From Candidatus Sabulitectum sp. (GTDB taxonomy: Bacteria; Fermentibacterota; Fermentibacteria; Fermentibacterales; JCC-6): DNA of 36,383 bases. Of this stretch, positions 9,401 through 35,391 are shown one piece after another. The position numbers and the translations under genes are program-made. The stretch spans positions 1-36,383 of the forward strand of contig JAOZRM010000004.1 of NCBI GenBank assembly GCA_029940175.1, written 5' to 3'. Positions within the stretch are counted from its first letter, which is position 1; the number at the start of each line of letters is the position of its first letter. The notes under the pieces were generated by a model that did no database searches, was not told where the DNA came from, and worked only from the letters and a program-made list of their open reading frames with translations.

Positions 9401-10675
9401 ATGGATTCCAGCGAGGAAATGAAACCCACCTTAGACCGTCTTCAGGAGATGATCGCCAAGGGATCATTGTTTGAACTCTATGACCAGATGCTTGGTGAAG
9501 TGGATGTAGCTAAAGTCCTGGACAAGACTACCGCTGCTGTAAAACACATCTTCGAGTCGGAGCGGGCCACGATATTCCGAGTTATCCAGGAAACCCAGGA
9601 ATTGGAATCAATTGCCTACCTCGGTAATGTTGCCCGAATCATCAGAGTACCAATAAACAATGACTCGCTTGCCGGGTACAGCGCTTTGAGTAAATCAACT
9701 TTTGTGCTGCCTGATGCGTATGGAGACCTCTCGGTCATCAATGACTCTCTTCATTTTGACCGATCATGGGATGAAATGAACAATTTCAGAACCAGAGACG
9801 TAATGTGTTCACCTGTTTTGTTCAAGGGCAAGTTACTGGGTGTTGTGCAGGTGATCAACAGTAAGAATAATCCGTTCTGTGAGACTGACCTGCCTGTTCT
9901 GGACAGTGTATGCAGGTTTGTGGCTTATTCTCTTCACCACACTCGACTGTATGATGAACTTGCAACGCTGAAGTGCCTTGAAAAGGAAAAAGCGGAATTT
10001 ATGCGTATCATCGTAGAGGAACTCCGTGCACCGGTTGCCACTTCAAAAACTCTTGTTCGTGAACTGCAGTTCACAAACATAGAGAATGCAGCTCTGCTTG
10101 CGGTACTCAGCAGAGTGGAGAGCCGTATGGATCAGCTACTGGACCTGGCCGAGGACATCCTTCAGTTATCACAGGTAAAGGGCGGAAGACCGCTGAGCGA
10201 AATAGTAGTGTGCGATCTGAAAAGCTATACTCAAGTCATCTTTGACAAGTATCTGGAGTTAGGAGAAAACAAAGGTCTGTCTTTGTCTCTGGAGCTGCCG
10301 GATTCACCCGTGAGTGTTCGTATGGATAAGCAGGGATACAACCTGATTCTGTCAAATCTTCTTTCCAATGCAGTAAAGTATACAGAAGCCGGGTCGGTGA
10401 GAGTAAAATTGCAGCTGGCAGACCCATGGGCTGTTCTCAGTGTTGAAGACACGGGAATCGGAATACCTGCAGAAGAGATCCCCAGGTTGTTCAAAGAGTT
10501 TTTCAGAGCTTCCAATGCCAGGCTGAGTGCGGTAAAAGGCACGGGAGTTGGTCTCACCAGTGTGAAAGATCTTGTGGAGAGGTTTCAAGGGGAGATAGAG
10601 CTGGACAGTGTGAAGAACGAAGGATCCAGGTTTACCGTACGGTTGCCACTTTACAAGCACGCAAAATTGTCATAA
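9401..10675 (+). CDS. GAF-domain sensor histidine kinase-like protein lacking the phospho-accepting His
   Basis: GAF domain (D...NFRTRDVMCSP...GVVQVINS). DHp reads VEELRAP instead of HELRxP. HATPase boxes NLLSNAVKYT, DTGIGI, F and GTGVGL are intact. Confidence 0.88.
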   Translation: MDSSEEMKPTLDRLQEMIAKGSLFELYDQMLGEVDVAKVLDKTTAAVKHIFESERATIFRVIQETQELESIAYLGNVARIIRVPINNDSLAGYSALSKSTFVLPDAYGDLSVINDSLHFDRSWDEMNNFRTRDVMCSPVLFKGKLLGVVQVINSKNNPFCETDLPVLDSVCRFVAYSLHHTRLYDELATLKCLEKEKAEFMRIIVEELRAPVATSKTLVRELQFTNIENAALLAVLSRVESRMDQLLDLAEDILQLSQVKGGRPLSEIVVCDLKSYTQVIFDKYLELGENKGLSLSLELPDSPVSVRMDKQGYNLILSNLLSNAVKYTEAGSVRVKLQLADPWAVLSVEDTGIGIPAEEIPRLFKEFFRASNARLSAVKGTGVGLTSVKDLVERFQGEIELDSVKNEGSRFTVRLPLYKHAKLS

Positions 10676-10709
10676 AAAAAAGCCCTCTCCACTGGAAAGG
10701 ACTTTTTTC
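10674..10709 (-). terminator. Intrinsic terminator of rpsT (possibly bidirectional)
   Basis: On the minus strand AGTCCTTTCC-AGT-GGAGAGGGCT forms 10 bp with G-U pairs, followed by a T run. A T run also follows on the + strand. Confidence 0.75.
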
Positions 10710-10724
10710 TATTTTATTTTGAAA

Positions 10725-10958
10725 CTACAGCACTCTGCTTTTAAGGCGTCTGGCCTTGTTCGGGTGCATGAGTCTGGTCCTCCCGGCTCTATCGATAAGA
10801 CTTTGAGCCAGCTTCACTGCCTCTTTTCGATCTTCCGGAGTCTCAGCTGCATTAACCTTTTTAATCGCTGTACGAAGCCTTTTGAGCTTTCTGTGGTTTC
10901 TCTCATTTTTCTCTGCATCTGTTCTCAGACGCTTGAGTGATTGCTTGCTCCTTGCCAA
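10725..10958 (-). CDS. rpsT: 30S ribosomal protein S20
   Basis: MARSKQSLKRLR...RN...LRTAIKKV...A.SLIDRA....MHPNKARRLKSR. TTG start at 10958 behind a GAAAGGAG SD; the ORF-track start is too far upstream. Confidence 0.95.
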   Translation of the reverse strand: MARSKQSLKRLRTDAEKNERNHRKLKRLRTAIKKVNAAETPEDRKEAVKLAQSLIDRAGRTRLMHPNKARRLKSRVL

Positions 10959-11037
10959 GAGCGCTCTCCTTTCGCAGAATAGACGGCACGAGCCGAACTT
11001 TTTTAACCCGTCAGGGTTGTACACCTTATGACGGGCG

Positions 11038-11066
11038 AATTTAAAGGATTCCCGCGCAGTTGTCAA
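11038..11066 (-). promoter_or_regulatory. Sigma70-type promoter of rpsT
   Basis: TTGACA-17 bp-TAAATT on the minus strand, followed by a GC-rich discriminator (CGCCCG). Confidence 0.75.
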
Positions 11067-11086
11067 CTATAGATGAGAGGAACGTA

Positions 11087-12514
11087 ATGCGTAAAAGTAT
11101 TGTTGTAGCACTTCTTCTGGTGCTTCCCATGGTTATGAGTGCCGACAGACTGATCCGGATACCAATGCAGACAGATGCAGATTTCACCCTTGTAAGAGAT
11201 ATGGGTTATGAAATTGCCTCTGGAAGCAGAGTCGATGGTTTTGTTGATATTCTGGTGAATCAGAGATTTGTTGAAGAGACCATGCGTGAGTATCCCGGGG
11301 CAAGACTGCTTCCCCTCGAGTGGTCGGAGCTTGTTCCCACGGATAGCAGAAATGAAATGGGCTATTACTACGGCCCCAACGAGAACGCTCTTTTTTGGGC
11401 AGAGCTGGCAGAGAACAATGACATGGTGGATACACCCACCTCCTACGGAACTTCCTACGAGGGAAGGGATCTTAACTTTGTTCGCATAACAAAAGCAGGA
11501 CCCGATGCTCCTGCAATTCTTTTTACAGCACTTACCCATGCCCGTGAACCGGGCAGCAATTCGGTTATTATCGACTGGGCCCAGTGGCTCACCACTGAGT
11601 ACGGTAATGACACTATGGCAACATTCATTCTGGACAATGCCCAGATCTACATTATTCCCATAGTTAACCCTGATGGCTATGTGTACAATGTGCCAGACCC
11701 GCAGGGAAGAGATCAGCGAAAGAACATGAACTGGACTCTGGGTAACGGAGTAGACCTGAATCGCAACTACAGTTACATGTGGGGATACGATGAGAGTGGT
11801 TCAAGCTCAAGTCCTTCAGCTGCAACTTACAGGGGTACCGCAGCTCTTAGTGAGCCTGAAACACTTGCAGAGACCCAGTGGATTGATTCAATAGAGCCTC
11901 TTGGCGGGTTTCACTACCACACCTGGGGTGGTTACCTGATTTATCCTTACGGGTTCAACAATTCACCAACACCGCACCAGAGTACCTTCCAGAGCTGGGC
12001 TGCCCAGATGACTGCACAGAATGGTTACGAATATGGCAGGTGCGGAGAAGTTCTTTACGATGTAAATGGCGACGCCGTTGACTGGTCTTACGGTGCCAGT
12101 ACCCATGATCCCATGCTTTTCTTCACTCCTGAGGTGGATGACAACGGTTTCTGGGGTAGTCAGAACGACACTAGTCTTATCGTGAACAATAATCTTGAAT
12201 GCAGATACATGAACAAGATTCTCTGCATGAACCTTTTAAGCATGACCGGTGTCGAAGAGGGAACCTATGCGCAGTGTGAAGGTTCTGTGATGGAACTCAC
12301 ACTTGGCTCAAACCCGGTAAGTGCGGTTCTCAGTTACACTGTTACCGGTGCTGTTCCAGCTTCCATGTCTGTTCTTGATGTTGCCGGCAGAGTTGTTGCA
12401 ACTCCTGAAGGTGGAAACTGGGTTGTCCCCGGGGATATGCAGAACGGTATCTACTTCATCCTTGCGGAAAACGGAAACGAATCTGTTTCGCAGCGATTTA
12501 CAATTTTGAGATAA
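11087..12514 (+). CDS. Secreted M14 zinc carboxypeptidase with a T9SS-like C-terminal sorting domain
   Basis: Signal peptide, HAREP (HxxE), NPDG, RKN, GVDLNRNY, SEPET, YHTWG and FTPEV. C-terminus reads SNPV...VLDVAGRVV...GIYFI...RFTILR. ATG 11087 follows GAGAGG. Confidence 0.9.
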   Translation: MRKSIVVALLLVLPMVMSADRLIRIPMQTDADFTLVRDMGYEIASGSRVDGFVDILVNQRFVEETMREYPGARLLPLEWSELVPTDSRNEMGYYYGPNENALFWAELAENNDMVDTPTSYGTSYEGRDLNFVRITKAGPDAPAILFTALTHAREPGSNSVIIDWAQWLTTEYGNDTMATFILDNAQIYIIPIVNPDGYVYNVPDPQGRDQRKNMNWTLGNGVDLNRNYSYMWGYDESGSSSSPSAATYRGTAALSEPETLAETQWIDSIEPLGGFHYHTWGGYLIYPYGFNNSPTPHQSTFQSWAAQMTAQNGYEYGRCGEVLYDVNGDAVDWSYGASTHDPMLFFTPEVDDNGFWGSQNDTSLIVNNNLECRYMNKILCMNLLSMTGVEEGTYAQCEGSVMELTLGSNPVSAVLSYTVTGAVPASMSVLDVAGRVVATPEGGNWVVPGDMQNGIYFILAENGNESVSQRFTILR

Positions 12515-12529
12515 AGGTAAGAGAATAAA

Positions 12530-13291
12530 GTGCTGGATTTTTACCAGAAACTGAACATTAAGAGAAGTGCCACTCAGGATGACATTGAGACTGCCTATGC
12601 AAAGATGGCTCTCAAACACCATCCTGATGTGGCTGGTGATTCTCCCAAGGTTCAGGAGCGATTTGCAAAGATCAATGAAGCATATTCTGTACTGAGCAAG
12701 CCTCACAAAAGACAGGAGTATGACGACAAACTGAGTACTCCCGAGGTTTTTTATCAGGAGGAAGTGATTTCGTCTGACGAAGGTCGAGCCACCGAGGAAT
12801 CTGTTTCTTCATCCACAGCTTCGGTTGTTTCTCCTGAAACCAGTCAGCCCGAGAAGAAGGAAAAGGCTTCTTCCGGGCTCATGAGCAGGAAAAAACTTGA
12901 AAGAATCAAACTGGAGTCCAAAAGACTCATCGCCAAGGGCGATTTCTGGAGAGCAAATGCTTTGATGAGGAAGGCTGTTATTGCCTATCCCCGTGATATT
13001 GATTTGCGGAAACTTCTTTCAAAAGCTGCTGCTGGAAGAGGAAGGCTCCGTGAGGCTGTAGAGGAGTTAAAAAAGGCTAGCGAAGTAGAGTACTTCAATC
13101 CGGAGATACACTGTTTAATAGGGGACATGTATCTACAGGGTAATCAGATAGACAGAGCAGCCAGTTCTTTTACAGATGCTCTGTCCTGGCAGGAGGATTA
13201 CAAACCCGCACTGCAGGGCCTTGAAAAGATCAGAGCGATGAAGAAATCCAACCTTCCCTGGTGGAAGAAACTGTTGAGGATGGGAAAATGA
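12530..13291 (+). CDS. J-domain (DnaJ-like) co-chaperone with C-terminal TPR repeats
   Basis: N-terminal J-domain with HPD and INEAYSVLS...R.EYD, then a Ser/Glu linker and TPR-like helices. Confidence 0.88.
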   Translation: MLDFYQKLNIKRSATQDDIETAYAKMALKHHPDVAGDSPKVQERFAKINEAYSVLSKPHKRQEYDDKLSTPEVFYQEEVISSDEGRATEESVSSSTASVVSPETSQPEKKEKASSGLMSRKKLERIKLESKRLIAKGDFWRANALMRKAVIAYPRDIDLRKLLSKAAAGRGRLREAVEELKKASEVEYFNPEIHCLIGDMYLQGNQIDRAASSFTDALSWQEDYKPALQGLEKIRAMKKSNLPWWKKLLRMGK

Positions 13292-13665
13292 AAGAGGCAA
13301 GTGGTCGACTCTACTATTCCATCGGTGAAGTGAGCGAAATGCTGGGTATCAAATCGCATACTCTTCACTACTGGGAAAGTGCGTTTCCCACCCTGAAGCC
13401 ACACAAGAATCAGGCTGGAAACAGGTGTTACAGACCCGGTGATCTTGATGTTCTAAAACTGATCGACAAACTGCTCAACGGTGAGGGCTACTCTATTGAA
13501 GGTGCTCGCAAGCAGCTTGAACTGCTCAAGAAGAAGGAAGGCCAGTTGTCTTTGAACTTGAAGGTAAACGATCAGTCAGTTGAATTGCTTGATGATATCT
13601 GTACTGAACTGGAAGCCATTATTCGGGATTTATCCCGACAGCCTCGTACCGAACTTGACGGTTGA
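13288..13665 (+). CDS. MerR-family HTH transcriptional regulator
   Basis: [26 protein letters not shown]...NR.Y...[13 protein letters not shown] overlap with the upstream gene. Confidence 0.9.
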
Positions 13666-13683
13666 TTATGCGTTGAATAGAAT
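13655..13683 (+). promoter_or_regulatory. Sigma70-type promoter of tRNA-Pro(GGG)
   Basis: TTGACG-17 bp-TAGAAT, 12 nt upstream of the tRNA. Confidence 0.7.
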
Positions 13684-13695
13684 TGTGCTTCCAAT

Positions 13696-13772
13696 CGGGG
13701 CGTGGCGCAGCCCGGTAGCGCACTTGAATGGGGTTCAAGTGGTCGCTGGTTCGAATCCAGTCGCCCCGACCA
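13696..13772 (+). tRNA. tRNA-Pro(GGG)
   Basis: CGGGGCG/CGCCCCG acceptor stem, anticodon arm CTTGA-ATGGGGT-TCAAG, GGTTCGAATCC T arm, encoded CCA. Confidence 0.97.
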
Positions 13773-13783
13773 CGCAGCAGCAG

Positions 13784-13809
13784 GAAAGGAACCCTCGGGT
13801 TCCTTTCTT
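13784..13809 (+). terminator. Hairpin (terminator or processing site) after tRNA-Pro(GGG)
   Basis: GAAAGGAACC-CTCG-GGTTCCTTTC perfect 10-bp stem. Confidence 0.7.
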
Positions 13810-13827
13810 CATATCCAGGGAGATTGT

Positions 13828-14463
13828 TTGATTTCAAAGGCCGCAGGGATGACGGTATGGCTCAGTAAGCTCTTTCCCGATCAGAGCTCCAGGGTTCTGG
13901 ATGCTATGTCAGAGGTTCAAAGAGATGTTTTCGTTGATCCAGGTTGGAAACGGATGGCCTATACAGACAGCAGCCTGCCCATCGGACATGGGCAGACCAT
14001 CAGTAAACCGGCTACTGTTTTCCGCATGCTCTCAGCCCTTGAACCTGTCTTCGGAGGAAAGCTGCTGGAGATAGGCAGCGGAAGCGGTTACCTCGCATCG
14101 GTGGCTTCAAGACTATTCAGCAGAGTATTCTGTGTTGAGAGGATCCTTGGACTTGTGGAGTCATCAAGGGCGAATCTTCAGAGAACCGGAGCCGGAAGTG
14201 TAGTAGTTCGGTACAGTGATGGAAGTGCAGGATGGGCTGCTCATGCTCCATTTGACGGTATACTTTACAGCGCCGGAGCCCCCGGGTTGCCTGCTTCACT
14301 TGCGGATCAGCTCCGAGAAGGTGGACTTGCCGGTGTACCGGTTGGTCTTAAAACGTCACAGGAATTCATCGTCTGGAAAAAGGTGCACGGAGAGCTTGAG
14401 AAAGTTTCATCTTTCCCGTGTTCCTTCGTTCCGCTTATAGGAAAAGAGGGATGGAATGGGTGA
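13828..14463 (+). CDS. pcm: Protein-L-isoaspartate O-methyltransferase
   Basis: AY.D..LPIGHGQTIS.P, LEIGSGSGY, ERI, DGS.GW..HAPFD, FVPL. Likely TTG start at 13828 after GGGAG; the ORF-track start lies inside the tRNA. Confidence 0.88.
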   Translation: MISKAAGMTVWLSKLFPDQSSRVLDAMSEVQRDVFVDPGWKRMAYTDSSLPIGHGQTISKPATVFRMLSALEPVFGGKLLEIGSGSGYLASVASRLFSRVFCVERILGLVESSRANLQRTGAGSVVVRYSDGSAGWAAHAPFDGILYSAGAPGLPASLADQLREGGLAGVPVGLKTSQEFIVWKKVHGELEKVSSFPCSFVPLIGKEGWNG

Positions 14464-14980
14464 GCACATTGCCATTGCGCTGATCAACAGCCTGAAGAAT
14501 CTTCCCGGAGAAATTGTTCTCATGCTTTTGTCAGCTCTCCCGGTAACTGAGTTACGAGCTTCTATTCCAGTGGCATTCACTGTTATGGCTGAAAGCTGGA
14601 ACTGGCCATGGTGGAAGGTATACATGCTGGCGGTTGCCGGTAATATGCTGCCTGTACCTTTCATTCTTATGCTTCTTGGTCCGGCTAGTCGCTGGCTTTC
14701 AAAGTGGAAGATCTTTGACAGGTTCTTTATGTGGCTTTTCGAGAGGACCCGCAAGAGGGTTGGGCCGCATATAAAAAAATACGAAGCTCTTGGTCTTACT
14801 CTGTTTGTAGCAATCCCACTTCCGGTAACAGGTGCATGGACAGGCAGCGCGGCGGCTTTTGTTTTTGATATTCCCAGGAAGCAGGCGATTGTATCGATTT
14901 TTCTTGGAGTATTGATCGCAGGAGCTATCATTACCCTGATCATGAAGGGTGTGTTGTCCGGTTTGAGCTTCCTTCTCTGA
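14456..14980 (+). CDS. COG2426 / putative small multi-drug export family membrane protein
   Basis: LPVTELRASIP, GNMLPVPFI, LFVAIPLPVTGAWTG; multiple TM segments. Confidence 0.85.
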   Translation: MGEHIAIALINSLKNLPGEIVLMLLSALPVTELRASIPVAFTVMAESWNWPWWKVYMLAVAGNMLPVPFILMLLGPASRWLSKWKIFDRFFMWLFERTRKRVGPHIKKYEALGLTLFVAIPLPVTGAWTGSAAAFVFDIPRKQAIVSIFLGVLIAGAIITLIMKGVLSGLSFLL

Positions 14981-14987
14981 GAAACAG

Positions 14988-15016
14988 TTGCAATAACGTT
15001 GTTGATCTCTTAGATT
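14988..15016 (+). promoter_or_regulatory. Sigma70-type promoter of tRNA-Pro(CGG)
   Basis: TTGCAA-17 bp-TAGATT, 13 nt upstream of the tRNA. Confidence 0.6.
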
Positions 15017-15029
15017 TCATCCGATCGGT

Positions 15030-15106
<77 letters not shown>

Positions 15107-15157
15107 GATTCTGCTTCCATATTTTGAAATTCTTTTATTTTTTACTATTTTACCCGT

Positions 15158-16149: not shown

Positions 16150-16210
16150 ATTTGATCGTAAACAAATAACAGGATCAGTTAATGAGAACTGATCAAACAA
16201 AGGGGAGAGA

Positions 16211-17170
16211 ATGACTAAGATCACAATGATGCTTGCAGTTCTTCTGGCTATTTTTGCATTTGGTTGTGCTGAGCAGGTAGATCCTGCTCCTGCTGATGAA
16301 AATGGCGAAACTGGCGAGAACGGTGAAGCAATTGAAACCAGTGAAGATTCCGGTACCGATGAAGTAAGTATTGACTTTGAATTTACTGCTCCAGAGGTTG
16401 GACAGTGGATTGCATACAGCGTTGATGGCGAGGATGGAGAATTTAAACTTTCAATCGTTGCTGAAGAAGACTACGCTGGTGCGGCATGCCTCTGGTACCA
16501 GATCGAGATGGACGGCGAAGCTCTTGCTCAGGTTCTTGTAGATCCTGTTGTTGTTGAAGAGCTTGTAGGTTTGAGTGGCGAATACATGGAAGAATTCATT
16601 GCTGATCCAGCAGCCTACATCCGTGAGAATATGCCGGAAGACGGCAGTTTCATGGGCAACGAAGACGCTATGGAAAACATGATGCTTTCCCTCAGCGCCA
16701 TCAAGCAGGTCAAGGTTCTTGATGGCACGCAGCTCATGCTTCTTGACCTGGCAGGCGTTCCTGAGCTTGTTGAGCAGATGATCGCTGATAATCCTGAGAT
16801 GCTTGAAGAGAGCATGCAGATCGATGCAGATAACTCCGAGATGGAAGAGTTCCTTGCAGAGCTCGAAGATGCTGAATTCAGCATGGAGGAAGTCGAAGTT
16901 GACGGGCTTAACTGTGTAGAGTACACCATGACTCATGCAGAAGAAGGAAGCATTGTTGCTGTTATTTCCATGGAGCTTCCAATTCTTCCTCTCATGGAAG
17001 CAGAAGTTATTCCAAACGATCCTGAAGATGAGGGTGGTCTTGTTTATGTCACCGGCTTTGGCTTTGACGGTGCAGTGAACCTTATTACCCAGGCTCCTGA
17101 TCAGACAATTCCAGTTGCAATGATGCTTCAGGGAATGGTTTCTCAGATGCAGCCTCCTCCAGAGATGTAA
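16211..17170 (+). CDS. Hypothetical highly acidic, Met-rich lipoprotein
   Basis: Signal peptide II ending FAFG-C, AGGGGAG SD, own terminator. Confidence 0.8.
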   Translation: MTKITMMLAVLLAIFAFGCAEQVDPAPADENGETGENGEAIETSEDSGTDEVSIDFEFTAPEVGQWIAYSVDGEDGEFKLSIVAEEDYAGAACLWYQIEMDGEALAQVLVDPVVVEELVGLSGEYMEEFIADPAAYIRENMPEDGSFMGNEDAMENMMLSLSAIKQVKVLDGTQLMLLDLAGVPELVEQMIADNPEMLEESMQIDADNSEMEEFLAELEDAEFSMEEVEVDGLNCVEYTMTHAEEGSIVAVISMELPILPLMEAEVIPNDPEDEGGLVYVTGFGFDGAVNLITQAPDQTIPVAMMLQGMVSQMQPPPEM

Positions 17171-20591: not shown

Positions 20592-20679
20592 AAGCACGTA
20601 TTCGTGTGCGTTTCATCACCGGTTGTCACAGAATATTCTTTGCCCTTTCACTGCAGTTCAAGTTACTTATATTCATAGA

Positions 20680-22014
20680 ATGGATAAAACTTTGTTTACA
20701 GACAAGCACCGGGCTTCGGCTCCTTTTGCTGAGCTGTTCCGTCCGGGAACTCTTGATGAGATAGCAGGCCAGAAACAGCTTCTGGGTGCAGAGGCTGCAT
20801 TTCGCCGTTCGCTTGCCGCTGCCTCACTGGGATCATTTATTCTCTGGGGTCCTCCTGGATGCGGCAAGACCACTCTTGCTCTTATTGTTGCCGATCACGT
20901 GGAGGAACACTTTGTAAGATTCAGTGCCGTTACTGGTGGTGTTAAGGATGTCCGCAGGATCGTAGCTGAAGCTGCTCTCCGCCGTGACACAGGTCAGGGC
21001 ACAATGCTTTTTGTTGACGAGATTCACCGATTCAACCGAAGTCAGCAGGATGCCTTTCTGCCCCATGTTGAAGATGGAACAATTCGTCTGGTGGGTGCGA
21101 CCACAGAGAATCCTTCTTTTCATGTGAATGCTCCACTTTTAAGCAGATGTTCAGTTTATGTCCTTGAACCTCTTGAGGCTTTTGATCTTATTGAAATGGT
21201 TCAGCGGATTGTTTCAAGTGATGAGTTCCGTGAAAAATGTGCTTCTGCTGTGAGTACCGAAGCGATGGAAGTTATAGCAGGGGCGGCAGATGGTGATGCC
21301 CGGAGATGTCTTAACATGCTGGAGCAGCTTGTGGGAATTGCCGACGAGGGTATGGTCAGCGGAGAGATGGCTTCTGATCTTGTTCAGGCAGCCCCCCTGC
21401 TTTACGATAACTCCGGCGAGGAACACTATAATCTCATAAGTGCTCTGCACAAATCCATGAGGTCCAGCGATGTGGATGCTTCTCTTTACTGGCTTGCCAG
21501 GATGATATCCTCCGGGGAGGATCCTCTCTATATTGGCAGAAGAATGATCAGGTTTGCTTCTGAGGACATAGGTATGGCAGATCCATCTGCTCTGACTGTC
21601 ACCATGAGAGCTGTTGACGCTTACAGGTTCCTGGGCTCACCGGAGGGAGATCTCGCTCTGGCTGAGGCAGTTGTTTACATGGCTCTGGCACCTAAATCCA
21701 ACAGTGTGTACTCCGCCTGGAAAAAGACATTGAAGACGGTTAAATTGATGGGAAGCCTCAGAGTACCGCTGCATCTCAGAAATGCTCCCACTGCCCTGAT
21801 GAAAAAACTTGAATACGGTAAAGATTACCAGTACGCCCATGGTCTTCATGGTGGTATTGTAACACACAACAATTTTCCGGACAGCATGAAGGAAATGGAG
21901 TTCTATAAGCCTTTAAGATCCGGTAGAGAAGTCAGAATTTCAGATGATCTGGAGCGATGGAAAAAAGCTCGCCTGGAAGCCAGGAAGAACGAAGGGAAAC
22001 AAAATGACCGATAA
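20680..22014 (+). CDS. rarA: Replication-associated recombination protein A (MgsA/RarA AAA+ ATPase)
   Basis: RP.TLDEIAGQ, WGPPGCGKTT, FVDEIHRFN, GATTENP, ISALHKSMR, SEDIG.ADP, VPLHLRNAPT. Confidence 0.95.
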   Translation: MDKTLFTDKHRASAPFAELFRPGTLDEIAGQKQLLGAEAAFRRSLAAASLGSFILWGPPGCGKTTLALIVADHVEEHFVRFSAVTGGVKDVRRIVAEAALRRDTGQGTMLFVDEIHRFNRSQQDAFLPHVEDGTIRLVGATTENPSFHVNAPLLSRCSVYVLEPLEAFDLIEMVQRIVSSDEFREKCASAVSTEAMEVIAGAADGDARRCLNMLEQLVGIADEGMVSGEMASDLVQAAPLLYDNSGEEHYNLISALHKSMRSSDVDASLYWLARMISSGEDPLYIGRRMIRFASEDIGMADPSALTVTMRAVDAYRFLGSPEGDLALAEAVVYMALAPKSNSVYSAWKKTLKTVKLMGSLRVPLHLRNAPTALMKKLEYGKDYQYAHGLHGGIVTHNNFPDSMKEMEFYKPLRSGREVRISDDLERWKKARLEARKNEGKQNDR

Positions 22015-22768
22015 GAAAGTATTCCAGGAGATCGAGTCACCAGTACAATACAGCGAGCTTTCTCCGGGAATGTACACTGTGAATTGCCCGGGTAAATTCA
22101 ATTCTGATGAAATTCTCAAGTTTGTGGAATGTGCAGCTGTTTCAAGGGATTCAGGTTTTTACAACGGGGCATTTATGGGGATAATGCTTCCTTACTACCT
22201 CCATAATGCAAACAATCTCATGGTGGGTGTTCTAGGTAATCTGGATCTGGCTGGAATGTTTATGCCGAACATGGAAAAGGTTGGCCCCAAAGTTACCGGA
22301 GCAAGAACCGCCACAGGCATTGTAGTAGACTATCTGCGCAACATCGCAGAAGCCATACCCTCCGATGAATGTGTGTCTCTGGGAGGCGATGTCATAGGTA
22401 AATCTCTGACCCTGCTGAAGGCCGCATGCGGTAGAAGCGTTAATTCCACCGGGCTTGACAGTATTGACCTTACAGAAACATTCAACTGCCTGCACCCTTC
22501 CATGGCAGCAGCAGCATTGAATGGTATGGCTGCATGGGTGGTTATCTCTCTCGGTGGCAGTGGTTCGGTTACAGGATATTCTTCCTCTGAAAGGATCGGA
22601 TTGAAGTGGTCAAGATCTGAAGGGTCCGGCCTGCCATACATGCCTGGAAGAGAAAACAGCGATTCTGTTATTGCCGCTGCAGGCGGCATGGCTATTGCAG
22701 GTGGGATGGCTCTTGTGATTCAGAACTGGAACAATCACGGAGGAGAGGTGTCTCTTGTTGTTAAGTAG
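22004..22768 (+). CDS. Hypothetical protein with a HisKA-like DHp helix and degenerate HATPase fold (candidate histidine phosphotransferase)
   Basis: YLHNANNLMVGVLGNLDLA aligns by eye with IAHDFNNILMAISGNTQLA of the neighbouring kinase. No N or G boxes. Confidence 0.6.
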   Translation: MTDKKVFQEIESPVQYSELSPGMYTVNCPGKFNSDEILKFVECAAVSRDSGFYNGAFMGIMLPYYLHNANNLMVGVLGNLDLAGMFMPNMEKVGPKVTGARTATGIVVDYLRNIAEAIPSDECVSLGGDVIGKSLTLLKAACGRSVNSTGLDSIDLTETFNCLHPSMAAAALNGMAAWVVISLGGSGSVTGYSSSERIGLKWSRSEGSGLPYMPGRENSDSVIAAAGGMAIAGGMALVIQNWNNHGGEVSLVVK

Positions 22769-24803
22769 TAATGCCAGAGCGGTTTACTCTCTTCTTTCGT
22801 CCACCGGCGAAAGGTTGAATATCCAGGCGATAAACAGCCGGCTTCCAGAGATTCAGGACAGAACTGGAGCTGTTGCTGCTTTGATGAAGGAAGGGCTTAT
22901 CTGGCATGCAGGCAAGGGTCGATATGCCACTCTTAAAACCCTCGGCATGGAAGTGGGAACCATACGAATGCGTTCTGACGGCTCTGCAACTCTTTACACT
23001 CAAGAGCCGGATCCCATTCGCATTGTAATTGAAAAGAACGATACCGGTGGAGCTCTTGACAGAGATGTTGCCATCATCCGCCTTCTTGAACCTGATCTGC
23101 ACAGTGGCGGATACAACGGCAGAGTGATCGACATACTGAAGCGGTTTCGAAAGAGAATCGCAGGTATTGCCCGAAAACGGGGGGAGAACTGGTTCCTTGA
23201 TCCTCTTGATCCGAAAGTCAATGGTAATATTCCCCTTGATCCCGGCGAAGAGAAAATCAGGCAGGGTGATCTTATAGGGTGCGATATTGAATACGGCCGG
23301 AGTTCCATAAAGGTTAAAGCACTGTCAACTGTGGGTTCACCGAACACACCAGGAGCTCTCATTGACTCAGTATGTATCGATCTGGATCTTCCAGAGGATT
23401 TTCCTGAGGAGGTAAAACGGGAATCCGATGCTGTGTGTATTTCACCAGTACCTCATAGTTCCAGGAAGGATCTCAGGGATGTCTATACACTGACCATTGA
23501 TCCTGTGGACGCCAGGGATTTTGATGACGCAATTTCGATTGAGACACTTCCTCAGGGCGGATTCCGTCTGGGGGTTCATATAGCCGATGTTTCAGCATAT
23601 GCTCCACCTAATTCACTTGTGGATAATGAGGCTATGAAAAGGGGAACCAGTGTTTATCTTCCCGACAGAGTGATACCCATGATCCCTGAAATTCTTTCAA
23701 ACAGTGCATGTTCCCTGCAGCCGGATCAGGACAGACTGACAAAGACCGTTCTTATCAGTTATGACTCTTCCGGAAAGCGAACTGACTTTGCCGTTTTTTC
23801 TTCTCAGATAAGGTCTCGAAAAAGACTGAACTACACCGAGGCTTTTGCCATTCTTTCCGGTGAATCTTCAGGAGACCCGGAGCTGGATGAGATCTTCAGG
23901 CAGTTTTCTGCTTTGAATACCGTTCTCGATAAGGTTCGAGAGAAAAGAGGAGCTGTTGACCTTGGCGCTTCCGACTTCAGAACACAGTTCAGCGGAGAAG
24001 GTTTTCCAAACGGGTTTGAAAGAGTTTCCGATGATGTGTCCCACAGGATGATAGAGAACTTTATGGTGGAGGCAAACAGTGCAGTAGCTGAATTCTGCAA
24101 GTGGCTGGAACTGGATGTTCTTTTCAGGGTGCATGGGGACCCTGCACCGCAGGCTGCTGAAAAATTAAGGAGAACTCTTTCTATTTATGGGTTCAAGATG
24201 CCTGGTCAGCTCTCTCCTCGTGCTTCCGCCCTCTCAAAAACTGTTAAAGAAGCTGAGGGAACTCCACTTTATCCCATTATTCGGGATGCTGTACTGAGAT
24301 CCATGCAGAAAGCAGTTTATTCCACTGAGAATTCTGGTCACTACGGACTGGCTCTTAGAAACTACATGCACTTTACAAGTCCGATTCGAAGGTACCCTGA
24401 TCTGATCGTACACCAGGCTATTACAGCTTATGAAGAGGGGAAAATCCTTCAGCGCTCTGAATCAATTTCCACACTTGCCGATATGTGTTCTCAACTGGAG
24501 AGACGCGCAGCAGCTGCAGAAAGAACAACAACAGAGCTTATGGCACTGCTTTACCTCTCTCGGGAAACTGGCGGGGTTTTTGAGGGAGTTATTAGGGATA
24601 GAACAGATTTCGGTTTGTTCATCAGATTGCTTGATGTGCCGGTTGAAGGTCTGCTGCATGTGTCTGCCTTGAAGAAGTTCAGGCAGTTTGTTCCATCTGA
24701 TCTCAGCCCCGGTTCCGGTATATTTGTTTCTGTGGAGAAGTCGGATCCAGTCGAAAGAAGGCTTTCACTTCTGCCGGCGGCTGCCCCTGAGGAGAGCAAA
24801 TGA
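22755..24803 (+). CDS. rnr: Ribonuclease R (RNB family 3'-5' exoribonuclease)
   Basis: TIDPVDARDFDDA, VHIADVS, RGTSVY, HYGL...Y.HFTSPIRRYPDL, C-terminal S1 domain. Confidence 0.9.
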   Translation: MLLSSNARAVYSLLSSTGERLNIQAINSRLPEIQDRTGAVAALMKEGLIWHAGKGRYATLKTLGMEVGTIRMRSDGSATLYTQEPDPIRIVIEKNDTGGALDRDVAIIRLLEPDLHSGGYNGRVIDILKRFRKRIAGIARKRGENWFLDPLDPKVNGNIPLDPGEEKIRQGDLIGCDIEYGRSSIKVKALSTVGSPNTPGALIDSVCIDLDLPEDFPEEVKRESDAVCISPVPHSSRKDLRDVYTLTIDPVDARDFDDAISIETLPQGGFRLGVHIADVSAYAPPNSLVDNEAMKRGTSVYLPDRVIPMIPEILSNSACSLQPDQDRLTKTVLISYDSSGKRTDFAVFSSQIRSRKRLNYTEAFAILSGESSGDPELDEIFRQFSALNTVLDKVREKRGAVDLGASDFRTQFSGEGFPNGFERVSDDVSHRMIENFMVEANSAVAEFCKWLELDVLFRVHGDPAPQAAEKLRRTLSIYGFKMPGQLSPRASALSKTVKEAEGTPLYPIIRDAVLRSMQKAVYSTENSGHYGLALRNYMHFTSPIRRYPDLIVHQAITAYEEGKILQRSESISTLADMCSQLERRAAAAERTTTELMALLYLSRETGGVFEGVIRDRTDFGLFIRLLDVPVEGLLHVSALKKFRQFVPSDLSPGSGIFVSVEKSDPVERRLSLLPAAAPEESK

Positions 24804-30504: not shown

Positions 30505-31700
30505 AATACGCTTTCCTCGCAGTACTGTTTCTGGCATCGGCATTTTTCAGTGGCACTGAAACGGCCTGCTTCAGCTTAAGTCAGCTTCAGAAAGAGAGAA
30601 TGTCCACCAGCGCCAGAGGGCGCCGTGCATTGAAGCTTCTCGCTGATCCGGGAAGACTGCTGACTTCCATTCTTCTTGGAAATACTTTCGTGAATGTTGC
30701 TGCTTCTTCTCTTGCAGCAGGAATCACTGCTGATCTGATTCCCGGTACACTGGGGTTGGGTCTCGGGGTTCTTGTTATGACTTTTCTTCTTTTAGTTCTG
30801 GGTGAGATCAGTCCCAAAACACTTGCCAGAAGAAAGAACCGGGAATGGATAGAAAGCTCATCCCATATTGTGGGTTTGTTGCTGTGGATTCTTTCTCCGG
30901 CAGCAAAGCTTCTTACGTACCCGGCGGATCTTGCAGACAGACTTGTTCCCGGAAGAGAAGGAGCTGATAGCTACATGGCTGCTGAGTTGTACATTCTTAT
31001 GGAAATGGCCAGGGATGAAGGAATTCTTGGAGGAGAGGCTGCTACAGCGGTTGCCATTCTTGAACTTGACGAGAGACAATGCGTTTCTGCAATGGTTCCC
31101 CGTGAAAAGGTTCTTTCATTAATGTCGGACTGGACTGTGGAAAAGGTAAAGGAAGAGGCTGAAAGAAGTTCTCAAACTGCTTATCCTTACATTGATGCAT
31201 CAACCGGACTCATGACAGGTATTATTGATGTAAAAGATCTCCTCGGTAAGGATCTGTTTATTGTTAGAGAGGTTCCATTCTTTCCAGAGTCTGCACGTTT
31301 GAGCAGAGTACTCTCTGATTTGAGAAAATCAGGGAACAGAATGGGAGCTGTTGTTGACGAATACGGAGACTGGACTGGTATTATTTCAGTGGCAGATATA
31401 CTGGAACGGGCTGTTTTTGCAGGGTCCTCCGGTGCACCTCTCCCCGAGGGTGTAAGCCGCAGCGGTGCTGGTTTTCTTATCCCGGCAAGTCTTTCTATCG
31501 AGACTCTTGCAGCTCTTCTGCACTCTGAAACACTTTCCGCGAGATATGCTGAATCCTGTGGAGGTCTGCTTCAGGAGATCACAGGCAGGCTTCCACTCGA
31601 GGGAGAGGTTATTGAGTATTCCGGTTTTCTGTTCAGAATAATCAGGGTTCATGTGAATGCACTTGAAAAAATATTTGTGGAGAAAGTTGTGAAATCATGA
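30501..31700 (+). CDS. CNNM/DUF21 (CorB/hemolysin-like) CBS-domain membrane protein, probable CTG start
   Basis: The conserved SAFFSGTETACFSLS lies in frame upstream of the first ATG (30600). Also ILLGNTFVN, GEISPK, VVDEYG...GIIS..DILE and a CorC-like tail. Confidence 0.85.
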   Translation: MKYAFLAVLFLASAFFSGTETACFSLSQLQKERMSTSARGRRALKLLADPGRLLTSILLGNTFVNVAASSLAAGITADLIPGTLGLGLGVLVMTFLLLVLGEISPKTLARRKNREWIESSSHIVGLLLWILSPAAKLLTYPADLADRLVPGREGADSYMAAELYILMEMARDEGILGGEAATAVAILELDERQCVSAMVPREKVLSLMSDWTVEKVKEEAERSSQTAYPYIDASTGLMTGIIDVKDLLGKDLFIVREVPFFPESARLSRVLSDLRKSGNRMGAVVDEYGDWTGIISVADILERAVFAGSSGAPLPEGVSRSGAGFLIPASLSIETLAALLHSETLSARYAESCGGLLQEITGRLPLEGEVIEYSGFLFRIIRVHVNALEKIFVEKVVKS

Positions 31701-32617
31701 TCAACCTTCTTGTTTTTCTTGGAGCCAGCATGCTTGCTGCATTCTGTAGTGGTTCGGAAACTGCATTTTCAGCTGCAGGTAAGATTCAGGTAGCAGCCCG
31801 GGGAAGAAAGGGTGCGAGAGCTCTGTGGTTCATGGAAAAACCTTCCCGTTACCTTGCTACAACCCTGGTGGGTACAAATGTTGGAGTGGTTCTTACTTCA
31901 AGCATAAGTCACGGCTGGGGTGTTGAGATGGGAGGTGTCTGGGGGGTTTTATTTGCTTTGGGTACAGCACTGTTTCTTCTCATCTTCGCTGAAATTACAC
32001 CCAAGCAGCTTGCTCTGTTCAGAAGCAACAAATTGTCTGTTGCAGCTGCTCCGTTTCTGTACCTGTTTCGAATGATAATGTACCCACTGATCGCAGCTGC
32101 GTCCGCTATATCCAACAAGGTCGCCGGCTCTGGCAGTGGTGAGCGATTCTTTGAGAGCCGAGCCGAGGTAAGGGGTCTTTTGCGGTCTTCCGGGGGCAGA
32201 AAGGGCATACTTGCATCTTCAGTTTTGAGCATGGCAGAAACTTCAGTAAGTGTTTATTCCAGGAAACTCACAGATTTCCCCGGAGTTGATGCCGGTGTTG
32301 AGAAGAAGCTTGCGCTTGAAGTGCTTTTGGGATCAGGGGAAAATCTTATTCTTATCTGGGAGGAAACAGGAGTAACTCTTCTGGGAGCAGTAAAAAGCTC
32401 CGCTCTTGTCAGATGGGATGGAGAGGGTTCAATATCAAAAATTTCTGTAGGTCTGCCTTACTACCAAGGGCGAACAGCACCGTTGAAGGTACTTTCAGAA
32501 CTCTGGCGATCCGGAGCAAGAGCTGCAGTTCTTCTTGATGACAATCGCCAGCCTGTCAGCCTGGTAACCGCTGAAATGATACTTGAACATCTCTTGCCGG
32601 AGTTTGCCAATGGCTGA
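31697..32617 (+). CDS. Second CNNM/DUF21 protein with a divergent CBS pair and no CorC tail
   Basis: AFCSGSETAF, TTLVGTN, FAEITPK. ATGA overlap. Confidence 0.82.
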   Translation: MINLLVFLGASMLAAFCSGSETAFSAAGKIQVAARGRKGARALWFMEKPSRYLATTLVGTNVGVVLTSSISHGWGVEMGGVWGVLFALGTALFLLIFAEITPKQLALFRSNKLSVAAAPFLYLFRMIMYPLIAAASAISNKVAGSGSGERFFESRAEVRGLLRSSGGRKGILASSVLSMAETSVSVYSRKLTDFPGVDAGVEKKLALEVLLGSGENLILIWEETGVTLLGAVKSSALVRWDGEGSISKISVGLPYYQGRTAPLKVLSELWRSGARAAVLLDDNRQPVSLVTAEMILEHLLPEFANG

Positions 32618-34220
32618 CATCAGCCCTCTCACCGGGTTGCCCGGTAATTTGTCGATTCAGATAAATCTTAGGGAACTGGTGATCAATGGAGACAGCACTG
32701 CTGTTTACGTGGATATTGTTGACTTCAAACCATTCAATGATTACTACGGTTTTGCTCTGGGAGATTCGGTGATCAGAAGGCTTGGGCAGATCCTTGAGGA
32801 ATCCATTCCTGATTATTTTGTTGGACACATCGGTGGAGATGATTTTTTATGTATTGGCCGGGGACAAAGCTTCATCACCGGTATTGAGAGTGCACGCCAG
32901 AGATTCCGGAGCATCGTTCCTGGATTTTACACTCCCAGGGATAGAGAATTTGGTGGAATTGAAACCTTTGACAGAGATGGAAGTTACAAATTTCTTCCTC
33001 TTCTGGATATTGCGGTGGTATTCATGGATTCAGAGCATGATGATGTCACCGTTGAGGCACTTGCACGCAAGGCGGGTCGCACTAAGAAATTCCTCAAGGG
33101 TGAACAGACTGCAGAATCAGTGTTTCCAGTTTTACAGAGAGCTCTTAGATCCGGATATCCGGTAGAGAATGTCAAGGCACTTATCGAAGCATGTGGCGTT
33201 TTGCGGGAAGAGGGAGCTGTAACAGTTCTCGCTGAAGTTCTCACAGGTAAATACAGCTGGAGTCTAAGGAAGAGCGCGGCACTTGCACTGGGGCACATTG
33301 GTAACGCTGAGTGTACCGGGCTTCTGCTGAATGCTCTTAAAGATTCCAATCCCCATATTCGTACCCGAGCAGTGGAAGGGCTTGTTATTTCTATGGGCAG
33401 AGAGTCCGGCCCTTTGATCGCACCAATGCTGAAGGACAGGTCAACCTGGGTTAGAAGGGCGGTTCTTCGCGGGATAGGATATGCAGGCTGGCTCGATGGC
33501 CTTCATTTTCTCAGAGCTTCAGCCATAGACAAGGCTTCCGGTGCAGGAATAAATACAGCCCGTGAAAGAAGTGCAGCACTAGATGGTATTGCTATGCTCA
33601 GTCCAGTTACTGAAGCTGAGTTTCTCTCAAGACTTTGCAATACTGAAGAGTATTATCCCGGAGATGCGGCTTTCAAAGCTCTCTGCTCTGTTGGAACAGA
33701 CTATGCTGCAGATCAGGTACTCCGGCAGAACGGAACAATTCCGGGGATTCTCAACCTTACTGGAATGAGTAATTCAAATTTGAGAAAGCTGGAGGTAATG
33801 GCAACCTGCTCACTTACTCAAGACGACTCCACTGTTGCAGGTGCTTTGAGATTTCTTGAGGGTTTTTCTATGGATCTCAGTAATTCCACCACTGCAAAAC
33901 TAAGGAACTGCCTCGGTAATTTTTCCGGGGACTTGTTCAGACGTCTGGTGATCTTACTTGACAACCGGAAGCTGACCGCTGACAGATCGTGCATCGCCAG
34001 AGTGGCCAGCCGGATGAATGCAGGGGAGCAGATCGGAGCATCGGCACTAAGCGCATTTCTGGGGTGGGTAGCTCGCAGGGGAGGAGTGTCCCCGGGCAGT
34101 CTGCTTATCTCCTTTCTAAGGGGAGATAGAAGGGCTGTGGCAGCTTCCGCTGCCCTTGCTGTTCGAGCTCTTGCATCCAGGGACTTGACGCAGATGGAAA
34201 ATGTAGAGACAATTAGTTAG
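32610..34220 (+). CDS. GGDEF-domain (GGDDF) protein fused to HEAT repeats
   Basis: SPLTGLPGN, YVDIVDFKPFNDYYGF..GD, GHIGGDDF. HEAT units LRKSAALALGHIG, D.NPHIRTRAVEGL, D.STWVRRAVLRGIG. ATG 32610 follows GGAG. Confidence 0.85.
   Translation: MADISPLTGLPGNLSIQINLRELVINGDSTAVYVDIVDFKPFNDYYGFALGDSVIRRLGQILEESIPDYFVGHIGGDDFLCIGRGQSFITGIESARQRFRSIVPGFYTPRDREFGGIETFDRDGSYKFLPLLDIAVVFMDSEHDDVTVEALARKAGRTKKFLKGEQTAESVFPVLQRALRSGYPVENVKALIEACGVLREEGAVTVLAEVLTGKYSWSLRKSAALALGHIGNAECTGLLLNALKDSNPHIRTRAVEGLVISMGRESGPLIAPMLKDRSTWVRRAVLRGIGYAGWLDGLHFLRASAIDKASGAGINTARERSAALDGIAMLSPVTEAEFLSRLCNTEEYYPGDAAFKALCSVGTDYAADQVLRQNGTIPGILNLTGMSNSNLRKLEVMATCSLTQDDSTVAGALRFLEGFSMDLSNSTTAKLRNCLGNFSGDLFRRLVILLDNRKLTADRSCIARVASRMNAGEQIGASALSAFLGWVARRGGVSPGSLLISFLRGDRRAVAASAALAVRALASRDLTQMENVETIS
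34185..34213 (+). promoter_or_regulatory. Possible sigma70-type promoter of the PAS/pseudo-receiver gene
   Basis: TTGACG-17 bp-GACAAT within the last codons of the upstream gene. Confidence 0.5.
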
Positions 34221-34245
34221 TCGTTGTCTTTTCGAAAGGTGATTA

Positions 34246-35391
34246 ATGAGCGAAACCGTACGAGAGTTACTTGCACAATTGCGAGTTTCCGATGAGCCGC
34301 AGCTTTCTGCTTTTCTTCCTGACCCCGAGGGCCAGAATGTGATCTTAAGGAACCTTCCTTGTGCTCTTATCGTACTGGATTCTGAAGAGGGCGTTGTTCT
34401 TGAACTGAACGATTACGCTCTTGATCTATTCGGAGTGCAAAGGTTTACGCTTATCGGGAAGACTTTGAAGTCTGTAGGTATCTCCATGGATGTAAACAGT
34501 GAATCAGTGGCTGCATCACCAGGGAACCCATCTCAGGGATTTATTAAGGATTCCAGTGGTGTCTCCGTTCCTGTTCTTCTGCTTCAGCGGAGAGTACGGT
34601 TGAGTGGCTTGAAAGCGGATGTTATTCTGATCATCGACTCTACGCTGATCGGAGGCAGCCGAACTGCTGAGGCAAGCTTTGATCTGTTTAAGAGAGCGCT
34701 CTCTGAGACGAAAACGGCGTACATATTCGCCCGTACCACAGGTGGAGCACTGGAGAGAGATCTTCAGGTGGTCGAATTTGGTGGTGATCTCCCTTTCGAA
34801 ATGACTGGTAAGATCATTGCCGGCACATCCGTTTCTGATGTTTTCACGCCGGTAAATGCAGCAAGAGTAGTGGAAAACGCAATAATTCTCTCAAGAAACG
34901 GTGGAGAGAAAAAACTTGACTTGAAGCAATGCAGACCACTTAAAATGTATGCAAATCCAGGAGGTCAGGTGCTTCTTGTTTTTCCTCCGGAGAATGACGA
35001 AAAAAAGACCATCAGAACAATTACCTCGCAGTTGAGTTCCGGAATGAAAAGAACAGTTCTGTATATCGCATCCAGCGCCACTGCAAGAAACTCAGGAAAG
35101 GAAATGCTGGAGATGATCGGCTTCCATGTGACCGAAATGGAATCTCCTTCAAGCGCACATATTATTCTGGACGAGAACCCGGGTAGATTCCACTTTATGG
35201 TATGCGAGGAATATGCTGATGATCCCGATCTTCTTGCTCTCGCCGTTGACCTGGACAGCGCCGGTATAGGTCTGATACTGGTTACAAATGATGACTTTTC
35301 TTACGACGGGGATCTAAGGCTGGTGAAACTGGCTCCTCCGCTAAGTATTAACCTTCTAGCGTCAGCAGTTTCTCAGGTTAGTGATCAATGA
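34246..35391 (+). CDS. PAS-domain protein with a C-terminal degenerate receiver-like domain
   Basis: PAS-like ILRNLPCALIVLD...ELN.YA..LFG....LIGK. The C-terminus follows the REC pattern (RTVLYI...MLEMIGFHV...FHFMVCE...PLSINLL) without the catalytic residues. Confidence 0.65.
   Translation: MSETVRELLAQLRVSDEPQLSAFLPDPEGQNVILRNLPCALIVLDSEEGVVLELNDYALDLFGVQRFTLIGKTLKSVGISMDVNSESVAASPGNPSQGFIKDSSGVSVPVLLLQRRVRLSGLKADVILIIDSTLIGGSRTAEASFDLFKRALSETKTAYIFARTTGGALERDLQVVEFGGDLPFEMTGKIIAGTSVSDVFTPVNAARVVENAIILSRNGGEKKLDLKQCRPLKMYANPGGQVLLVFPPENDEKKTIRTITSQLSSGMKRTVLYIASSATARNSGKEMLEMIGFHVTEMESPSSAHIILDENPGRFHFMVCEEYADDPDLLALAVDLDSAGIGLILVTNDDFSYDGDLRLVKLAPPLSINLLASAVSQVSDQ

Follow-up and report, generated by a model that had tools for sequence, protein, structure and literature searches.

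In Caulobacter, the hybrid histidine kinase CckA transfers phosphate to ChpT and is itself regulated by DivL, a pseudokinase that lacks the phospho-accepting histidine and has a tyrosine at that position. To our knowledge, very few degenerate-kinase histidine phosphotransferases have been characterised, namely Spo0B, ChpT and PhyT, from one lineage each. ChpT pairs a four-helix bundle of the dimerisation and histidine phosphotransfer (DHp) type with an atypical Bergerat fold in which the ATP lid is replaced, and it does not autophosphorylate (PMC3433190); a second source groups PhyT, Spo0B and ChpT as degenerated kinases serving as phosphotransferases (PMC5898713). Here we analysed a stretch of 36,383 nucleotides from Candidatus Sabulitectum sp. 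(Fermentibacterota; contig JAOZRM010000004.1 of assembly GCA_029940175.1). This stretch, hereafter the window, is an entire contig of a 3.12-Mb genome bin (402 contigs, 88% complete). An initial annotation had proposed that four two-component-like proteins within 26 kb of it might form an atypical phosphorelay parallel to CckA–ChpT–DivL; we label them P1, P2, P3 and P4 for the open reading frames (ORFs) that start at 9401, 17277, 22004 and 34246, respectively. Our analysis indicates that the four genes do not make up a single dedicated system and that P3 most likely serves generally as a histidine phosphotransferase derived from a kinase; to this reading we assign a probability of about 0.5. 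The genomes compared are metagenome bins throughout, and absence means not found in those searched.

Sequence, predicted fold and distribution of P3

P3 is encoded at 22004–22768 on the plus strand (254 amino acids, aa) and was recognised as kinase-derived by profile comparison, its AlphaFold2 (AF2) model and Foldseek. It matches no family in Pfam or NCBIfam, and its detectable kin are few, with only 38 proteins among 1.84 billion (1.84e9) representatives at E ≤ 0.001. Two of these, a SprB-repeat protein (P0021) and a Peptidase_G2 protein (P0041), were spurious by domain content; they and fragments were left out of the alignment, which keeps 27 of the 38 matches. In line with the initial description of P3 as a protein with a His but no ATP boxes, His67 (codon at 22202–22204) is invariant in 28/28 family members, HATPase_c is detected in 0/28 at E ≤ 1, and none of the N, G1, F and G2 consensus motifs is conserved in the 28-member alignment. 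The histidine lies in the context G..LP...HN.NN...G..GN..LA, and the invariant positions of the family are G59, P63, H67, N71, G78, L82 and A83.

Profile comparison with hhalign aligned P3 residues 55–193 to the DHp and the start of the catalytic and ATP-binding (CA) domain of the hybrid kinase P2 (80.5% probability, E = 1.3e-5), placing His67 on His742. This supports a remote homology to HisKA, the Pfam model of which (PF00512) stays below its gathering cut-off of 26.9 bits throughout the family: sub-threshold matches occur in 8/28 members (best E = 8.7e-4, 19.7 bits), and the window P3 has none at E ≤ 1. The P3 profile also cross-matches the DHp of kinases of 600–1100 aa at E 1e-8 to 1e-15, and the P3 H-box is of the HDFNN type, like that of the hybrid kinases of the same genome (LHNANNLMVGVLGNLDLA vs AHDFNNILMAISGNTQLA). 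Because of this H-box type and the cross-matches to the DHp of same-genome kinases, P3 seems to have degenerated independently from a kinase type present in this genome.

The AF2 model of P3, built with 28 relatives, has a predicted local distance difference test score (pLDDT) of 91.9 and a predicted template modelling score (pTM) of 0.89. It consists of a beta/alpha stub (residues 1–49), two antiparallel helices (50–86, which includes His67, and 90–117) and a Bergerat-type alpha/beta sandwich (~121–254). In a Foldseek search, ChpT came first (4fmt and 4fpp, then 4qpj and 4qpk; E 1.7e-5 to 2.2e-4, with the first three at 1.7e-5 to 4.4e-5; template modelling (TM) score 0.43–0.52), followed by many DHp-CA kinase cores and DivL. 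VIA-align superposed residues 121–254 on kinase CA domains with Z ~10 (root mean square deviation (rmsd) ~3 Å, ~120 residues) and P3 on ChpT (4qpj_A) with Z 9.4 over 174 residues. Read by eye, the F/G2 region of the ATP lid, from the G1 position to the last helix, spans ~10 residues in P3 compared with ~26 in P2. Model and sequence together show two features of a kinase-derived dimeric phosphotransferase, a His-bearing DHp hairpin and a Bergerat domain without ATP motifs or lid. Of the parallel drawn at the outset with CckA–ChpT–DivL, this part stood: P3 has the architecture of ChpT, with ChpT as its top structural match. The resemblance is structural only, and a PDB sequence search with the 28-member profile found no ChpT or kinase at E ≤ 1. 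Its sole match, an integron cassette protein (E = 0.25), was dismissed as chance level.

P3 is widely distributed in its phylum. Of 70 Fermentibacterota genomes, 65 have a profile match at E ≤ 6e-19, and the five remaining genomes (61–92% complete) gave only kinase-level cross-matches. All 46 high-quality genomes had a match at E ≤ 0.001, one of them (G055) merely at the level of a kinase cross-match. A search with the single protein recovered P3 in 31 of 40 relatives. The gene is single-copy, and the RNase R gene lies directly downstream in 19/19 related loci. In the window, the stop of the upstream AAA+ gene rarA/mgsA (20623–22014, plus strand; Pfam MgsA_C, AAA_assoc_2 and AAA) overlaps the P3 start by 11 nucleotides (nt), and the start of the RNase R gene (22755–24803, plus strand; Pfam RNB, CSD2 and S1) overlaps the P3 stop by 14 nt. 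When related loci were sought with the eight closest P3 members, P3 was found only in Fermentibacteria/Hyd24-12 bins, barring one weak match in Desulfatitalea (E = 6e-4; 81 residues at 26% identity) that we did not accept as P3 because it probably represents a kinase DHp.

We found no description of the P3 family in the main texts of the open-access literature, in which uses of 'ChpT-like', 'Spo0B-like' or 'pseudo-histidine kinase' did not concern Fermentibacteria. By title and abstract, none of the open-access papers naming Fermentibacteria or Sabulitectum covered, which are most of those available, addresses two-component signalling. The ESM Atlas clusters nearest to P3 (score 0.97) are unnamed hypothetical proteins of 209–245 aa from Verrucomicrobiota, Myxococcota and Gemmatimonadota, and a further neighbour is a 220-aa cluster with a HisKA match in 22% of its members. 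As a lead only, these look-alikes may be degenerate-kinase phosphotransferases in other phyla.

A proposed role for P3 in phosphotransfer

The genome encodes 13 hybrid kinases of the HDFNN-DHp/CA/receiver type, most with an S/T-G-Y motif at beta4. None of its four Hpt (PF01627) matches falls within these 13 frames: three are in other multi-domain proteins, and the fourth, which appears to stand alone, occupies a frame of 113 aa where a contig begins. Across the phylum, Hpt was detected in 43/70 genomes (25/46 of the high-quality ones), leaving 27/70 without a detectable Hpt domain. Five Hpt-less genomes that we checked (96–98% complete, one of them a single contig) encode 4–10 full DHp-CA-receiver hybrid kinases each. 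As a conserved His-bearing kinase core without ATP motifs, P3 would be an obvious candidate to accept phosphate from the receivers of such kinases.

We propose that P3 degenerated from a histidine kinase of the HDFNN-type DHp family to which the local hybrid kinases also belong. It has retained the phosphorylatable His and the dimerisation hairpin, has lost the ATP-binding motifs and is most likely incapable of autophosphorylation. As a dimer, it would take phosphoryl groups from the C-terminal receivers of hybrid kinases, of which P2 is just one among the 13 in the genome, and hand them on to terminal response regulators. The logic would be that of ChpT, Spo0B and PhyT, reached independently. 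We infer in this way that P3 dimerises, does not bind ATP and carries out phosphotransfer, with these receivers and regulators as its partners.

Several points weigh against a phosphotransferase role. The TM scores with ChpT are modest (0.43–0.52) and kinases tie with ChpT in VIA-align (Z 9–10.6), so that the predicted fold of P3 is that of a kinase core and not specifically that of ChpT. The residue that follows the P3 His is a nearly invariant Asn, whereas active HisKA kinases have Asp or Glu there. In most other genera, the P3 homologs are extended at the N terminus by ~110 aa, in which a VLCPxDxxEL stretch is conserved; hhalign did not support a receiver in this extension (probability 0.1%). 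P3 has rarA and the RNase R gene, and no two-component genes, as its constant neighbours, so genomic context lends no support to a signalling role. Not every hybrid kinase relays phosphate onward: the receiver may instead act as a sink or an autoinhibitor. The Pfam model may also overlook Hpt domains that have diverged.

Some of the same features would suit a pseudokinase without phosphoryl chemistry of its own, which would bind receivers or kinase DHp domains and act as a phosphatase-like protein, a scaffold or a heterodimerising regulator, as in RetS–GacS or DivL–DivK. P3 has a kinase-core fold without ATP motifs and has lost the acidic residue after the His, and structures of RetS–GacS and of DivL are among its fold matches in Foldseek and VIA-align. 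Its Asn at H+4 (N71) is invariant, and Asn at this position is important for the phosphatase activity of HisKA kinases. We nevertheless consider a purely binding role unlikely: the invariance of His67 in all 28 members is hard to explain without phosphorylation, and in the 27 of 70 genomes that are Hpt-less, where hybrid kinases are nonetheless numerous, the relay function would otherwise be unfilled.

A third possibility, which we regard as improbable, is that P3 merely descends from a kinase and now serves as an accessory protein or regulator of RNase R or RarA in RNA or DNA quality control. P3 adjoins the RNase R gene and is co-directional with it at all 19 loci, which span three families, and its overlaps with both rarA (11 nt) and the RNase R gene (14 nt) hold in this genus. 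Adjacency is little informative, however, where an entire block of 30 genes is syntenic, as described below, and P3 is most strongly conserved in the H-box that contains its His, which points to phosphoryl transfer. We know of no link between two-component proteins and RNase R.

If P3 is the phosphotransferase proposed here, it would explain hybrid-kinase signalling without Hpt in an uncultured phylum of anaerobic digesters and sediments, and it would add a further lineage in which this evolutionary route was taken independently. More tentatively, at somewhat less than even odds, P3 may be a ChpT analogue that evolved in Fermentibacterota independently of Alphaproteobacteria and Bacilli, a single-copy, phylum-wide hub for all HDFNN-type hybrid kinases and the sole histidine phosphotransfer protein in the ~40% of genomes without detectable Hpt, with a similar class perhaps widespread. 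Were this so, the position of P3 between rarA and the RNase R gene could mean that the hub is co-expressed with nucleic-acid quality control; if, in addition, the ESM Atlas look-alikes are real, degenerate-kinase phosphotransferases may be a widespread and unrecognised class. Annotation misses such proteins because they match none of the HisKA, HATPase_c and Hpt models.

The conserved gene block and the other three proteins

All four ORFs are present on the plus strand with the anatomies that the initial annotation had given them. They are predicted to be soluble, as it had stated, with no membrane segment in a 19-residue Kyte–Doolittle scan read together with the AF2 models of P3 and P4; the two short Kyte–Doolittle peaks in P3 and P4 fall within confidently folded helices or strands. 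The plus strand carries all 30 large ORFs of the window, which by Pfam is mostly housekeeping: TrpS, CysS, PCMT, RarA, RNase R, NadE, PurH, an SLT transglycosylase and CNNM transporters. A DNA-binding response regulator is indeed missing from the window by Pfam, its only DNA-binding protein being a MerR, yet this absence is uninformative, given that the other contigs carry 41 receiver domains. The bin holds ~49 distinct Pfam-detectable two-component frames, including 41 receiver domains over the cut-off and four Hpt. At this density of ~1 two-component gene per 64 kb, 0.4 would be expected in 26 kb compared with the two detectable ones seen (Poisson P ~ 0.06); their clustering is only mildly unusual and is not strong evidence by itself.

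We compared the window proteins with 19 related loci that have a P3 homolog and with one contig, from genome G011, that has orthologs of P1 and P2. The gene order M14 – DnaJ/TPR – MerR – PCMT – small exporter – SLOG – PRT – unk319 – [P2] – RarA – P3 – RNase R – NadE – PurH – SLT – NHL – CNNM – CNNM – GGDEF/HEAT – P4 – CT398 was maintained within the genus, in other genera of the family and in a second family. About 25 window genes keep the same order across two families of the order at 25–60% protein identity, and so long a conserved block is unusual for bacteria at this level of divergence. In five loci of other genera, a second, divergent PCMT-like methyltransferase gene, 36–39% identical to the window PCMT, lies between rarA and the P3 homolog. 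P3 and P4 are ancient parts of the block, and P2 is a lineage-specific insertion. Rather than forming a dedicated system, P1–P4 lie in a housekeeping block of ~30 genes (M14 peptidase ... rarA, P3, RNase R, nadE, purH ... GGDEF-HEAT, P4) that is conserved across the order Fermentibacterales and that probably gained two kinase genes later by insertion. The proximity of P1–P4 is explained by the synteny of this block across the order; where a whole region is an ancient syntenic block, pseudo-enzymes that lie close together are no evidence of a pathway.

P2 (17277–20591, plus strand, 1104 aa) is a soluble PAS-rich hybrid histidine kinase, identified by Pfam, NCBIfam and its motif positions. Its domains, all over the Pfam cut-offs, are PAS (four stretches), HisKA, HATPase_c and Response_reg. 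As annotated, it is intact: His742 lies in IAHDFNN, none of the N, G1, F and G2 boxes is missing, and the receiver has the DD pair, the Asp in ILDITMP, SGY and KP, which together are the elements of a hybrid histidine kinase (HisKA His, ATP boxes and receiver DD/D/S/T/K). Its best NCBIfam matches are the CckA equivalogs NF046020 and NF046026 (270.4 and 258.3 bits against a cut-off of 1000), through the DHp-CA-REC core only. By sequence, P2 is therefore CckA-like in core type (HDFNN) and not a CckA ortholog. In PMC9981736, an SGY-type motif is described for CckA-class intermediary receivers.

Among the 18 other genomes of the genus, eight have a clear P2 ortholog (at least 750 residues at 55–88% identity), and elsewhere we found only paralogs or relatives with 42% identity. 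Eleven loci show both flanks of the P2 position. P2 stands between unk319 and RarA in two of them (G013 and G002), and the slot is empty in the other nine (G006, G009 and the seven that belong to other genera or families). The unk319 gene (16211–17170), conserved at its position across the order, encodes a very acidic protein of 319 aa that matches no Pfam family and carries a signal resembling that of lipoproteins (…LLAIFAFGC); the hybrid kinase gene is inserted after it.

P1 (9401–10675, plus strand, 424 aa) has a GAF domain followed by DHp and CA, as judged by Pfam (GAF and HATPase_c), motif positions and comparison with paralogs and relatives; HisKA is sub-threshold (18.7 bits against the cut-off of 26.9). 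It had been described as a kinase with ATP boxes but no phospho-His, and both halves of this hold: the N, G1, F and G2 boxes are all present, and the H-box sequence is IIVEELRAPV, compared with xxxHELR/HEIR in five paralogs of this genome. The acceptor position is Glu206, whose codon (GAG at 10016–10018) is at least two substitutions from a His codon. A full-length relative was found in only one of 40 related genomes (G011), which makes two of 19 genus genomes carrying P1; in the other 39, the best matches were ~30% identical and covered the kinase core alone. The His-less GAF kinase of G011 is a tandem pair (contig C76, 11349–13909) with Asp at this position in one copy and Glu in the other. 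The matched stretch of one copy contains an in-frame TAG, and its database protein starts after this stop; the TAG may be upstream of the true start.

P1 has 486 kin at E ≤ 1e-40, many of them 60–67% identical and, where named, annotated as 'GAF domain-containing sensor histidine kinase'; the named ones come from bins of Chloroflexi, Anaerolineae, Planctomycetota and Acidobacteria. IIVHELR is kept in all five kin from other phyla whose sequence was read, whereas Glu or Asp replaces the His in all three Sabulitectum copies and in two unnamed close relatives of P1. The best NCBIfam matches of P1 are kinases of the PnpS, WalK and PhoR types. P1 would thus be a recent acquisition, a GAF kinase in which, within a small lineage, an acidic residue took the place of the His; from its sequence and narrow distribution, it may be either a phospho-mimic pseudokinase or a decaying gene. 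The GAF-kinase family to which P1 belongs (~420 aa) keeps ~60–67% identity across phyla. Sensor kinases are not usually conserved to this degree, and the pattern may reflect a ligand or partner that is itself conserved, or else frequent transfer.

The comparison of P1 with DivL stands only in part. Both have a kinase core in which the acceptor His is replaced and the CA domain retained; P1 differs in having Glu (Asp in one ortholog) at the acceptor position and a GAF input domain. We found neither orthology to DivL nor coupling to a CckA-type kinase: P1 is present in only one of the eight other genus genomes with a P2 ortholog, so the two do not co-occur, nothing ties P1 to P2 or P3, and its nearest kin are ordinary His-bearing GAF kinases.

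P4 (34246–35391, plus strand, 381 aa) consists of two PAS domains and a pseudo-receiver (~269–379), as supported by weak Pfam PAS matches, AF2, Foldseek and hhalign. In its AF2 model (pLDDT 72.7), two PAS folds are followed by a (beta-alpha)5 domain at the C terminus (pLDDT 80–90). In Foldseek, the PAS part matches structures of DosP, PpsR and LOV-PAS, and the C-terminal domain matches receivers, namely 3nhm (TM 0.76, rmsd 2.6, 113 columns), DivK (1mb3, TM 0.78) and CheY (8wiw_4, TM 0.71). The hhalign alignment with the P2 receiver is weak (20%, E = 0.0011) and consistent with the fold; in it, the DD pair is replaced by SS, the Asp by Cys320 and the Lys by Pro364, and Thr347 is kept. The earlier reading as a PAS protein with a pseudo-receiver is borne out, the CheY-like fold being present and four of five active-site residues gone, where the loss of at least one is enough for a pseudo-receiver. 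In this, P4 agrees with pseudo-receiver domains as reviewed in bioRxiv 10.1101/2025.06.23.661182, which have the receiver fold without the conserved active-site residues. Homologs in the second family retain the Asp and Lys-Pro and lack the acidic pair, so the domain has probably long been a pseudo-receiver and degenerated further in Sabulitectum.

With the window P4 as query, P4 was found in 28 of 40 relatives. Directly upstream in the window lies a gene for a GGDEF (reading GGDDF) and HEAT-repeat protein (32583–34220, plus strand; Pfam, NCBIfam and synteny), and the same succession of GGDEF-HEAT gene and P4 is seen in all loci long enough to include it, with the exception of L048, in which only the GGDEF-HEAT match was over threshold. 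Neither the PAS-PAS-pseudo-receiver architecture nor its pairing with a GGDDF-HEAT protein corresponds to a named family in Pfam or NCBIfam. We found no link between P4 and P3 beyond the shared syntenic block, and P4 more plausibly works with its GGDEF-HEAT neighbour than with P3. The GGDEF domain of that neighbour is short, and the gene is conserved directly upstream of P4 across the order; the two may be a signalling pair of degenerate proteins. At its other end (44–2137), the window encodes a SpoIIE-type PP2C phosphatase fused to HEAT repeats, so that it holds two HEAT-fused signalling enzymes, PP2C-HEAT and GGDEF-HEAT.

These data bear on the relay as first suggested, with specific phosphotransfer from P2 to P3, the His-less P1 regulating P2 as DivL does CckA, and P4 as a further pseudo-enzyme. 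The anatomies of P1–P4 are all as that idea supposes, the genes for P2, RarA and P3 follow one another in the same direction, SGY in the P2 receiver is a motif of CckA-class receivers (PMC9981736), and in G011 the P1 orthologs and the P2 ortholog lie ~6.5 kb apart on the same contig. The proposal is nonetheless very improbable, given that the G011 co-location merely reflects the same syntenic block, that the nearest kin of P1 are His-keeping GAF kinases of other phyla and not DivL-like proteins, that the P2 slot is so often empty, and that P3 is spread far beyond both P1 and P2. When co-occurrence and synteny were compared, the orthologs of the four proteins did not travel together: P1 was found in 1/40 relatives, P2 in ~8/18 other genus genomes, P3 in 65/70 phylum genomes and P4 in 28/40 relatives. 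Such independent distributions are the outcome that the initial annotation itself had named as speaking against a four-gene relay, and this part of its parallel with CckA–ChpT–DivL is unsupported.

P3 beside known phosphotransferases

Among described proteins, ChpT of Caulobacter and Brucella (4fmt, 4fpp, 4qpj and 4qpk) is the closest to P3. Both are soluble proteins of ~210–250 aa in which a DHp-type hairpin with a His is followed by a Bergerat-type domain without lid or ATP motifs, in P3 according to the model. Unlike ChpT, to which it has no detectable sequence similarity, P3 has an H-box of the HDFNN type with Asn after the His and a 50-aa N-terminal stub that is ~110 aa longer in other genera. 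ChpT belongs to Alphaproteobacteria and acts downstream of a CckA-type hybrid kinase, whereas P3 is found in Fermentibacterota only and has no context of the CtrA/CpdR type.

Spo0B of Bacillus and PhyT of Sphingomonas are likewise degenerate kinases that keep the His hairpin and shuttle phosphate between receivers, as described in PMC5898713 and PMC3433190. They belong to other sequence families than P3, PhyT is membrane-anchored, and neither is among the fold matches listed for P3 by Foldseek and VIA-align. Hpt domains (PF01627) have the same role as that proposed for P3, an intermediary from receiver to regulator. They differ in being monomeric four-helix bundles, and P3 has no PF01627 match; within Fermentibacterota, Hpt occurs in 43 of 70 genomes, compared with the near-universal presence of P3.

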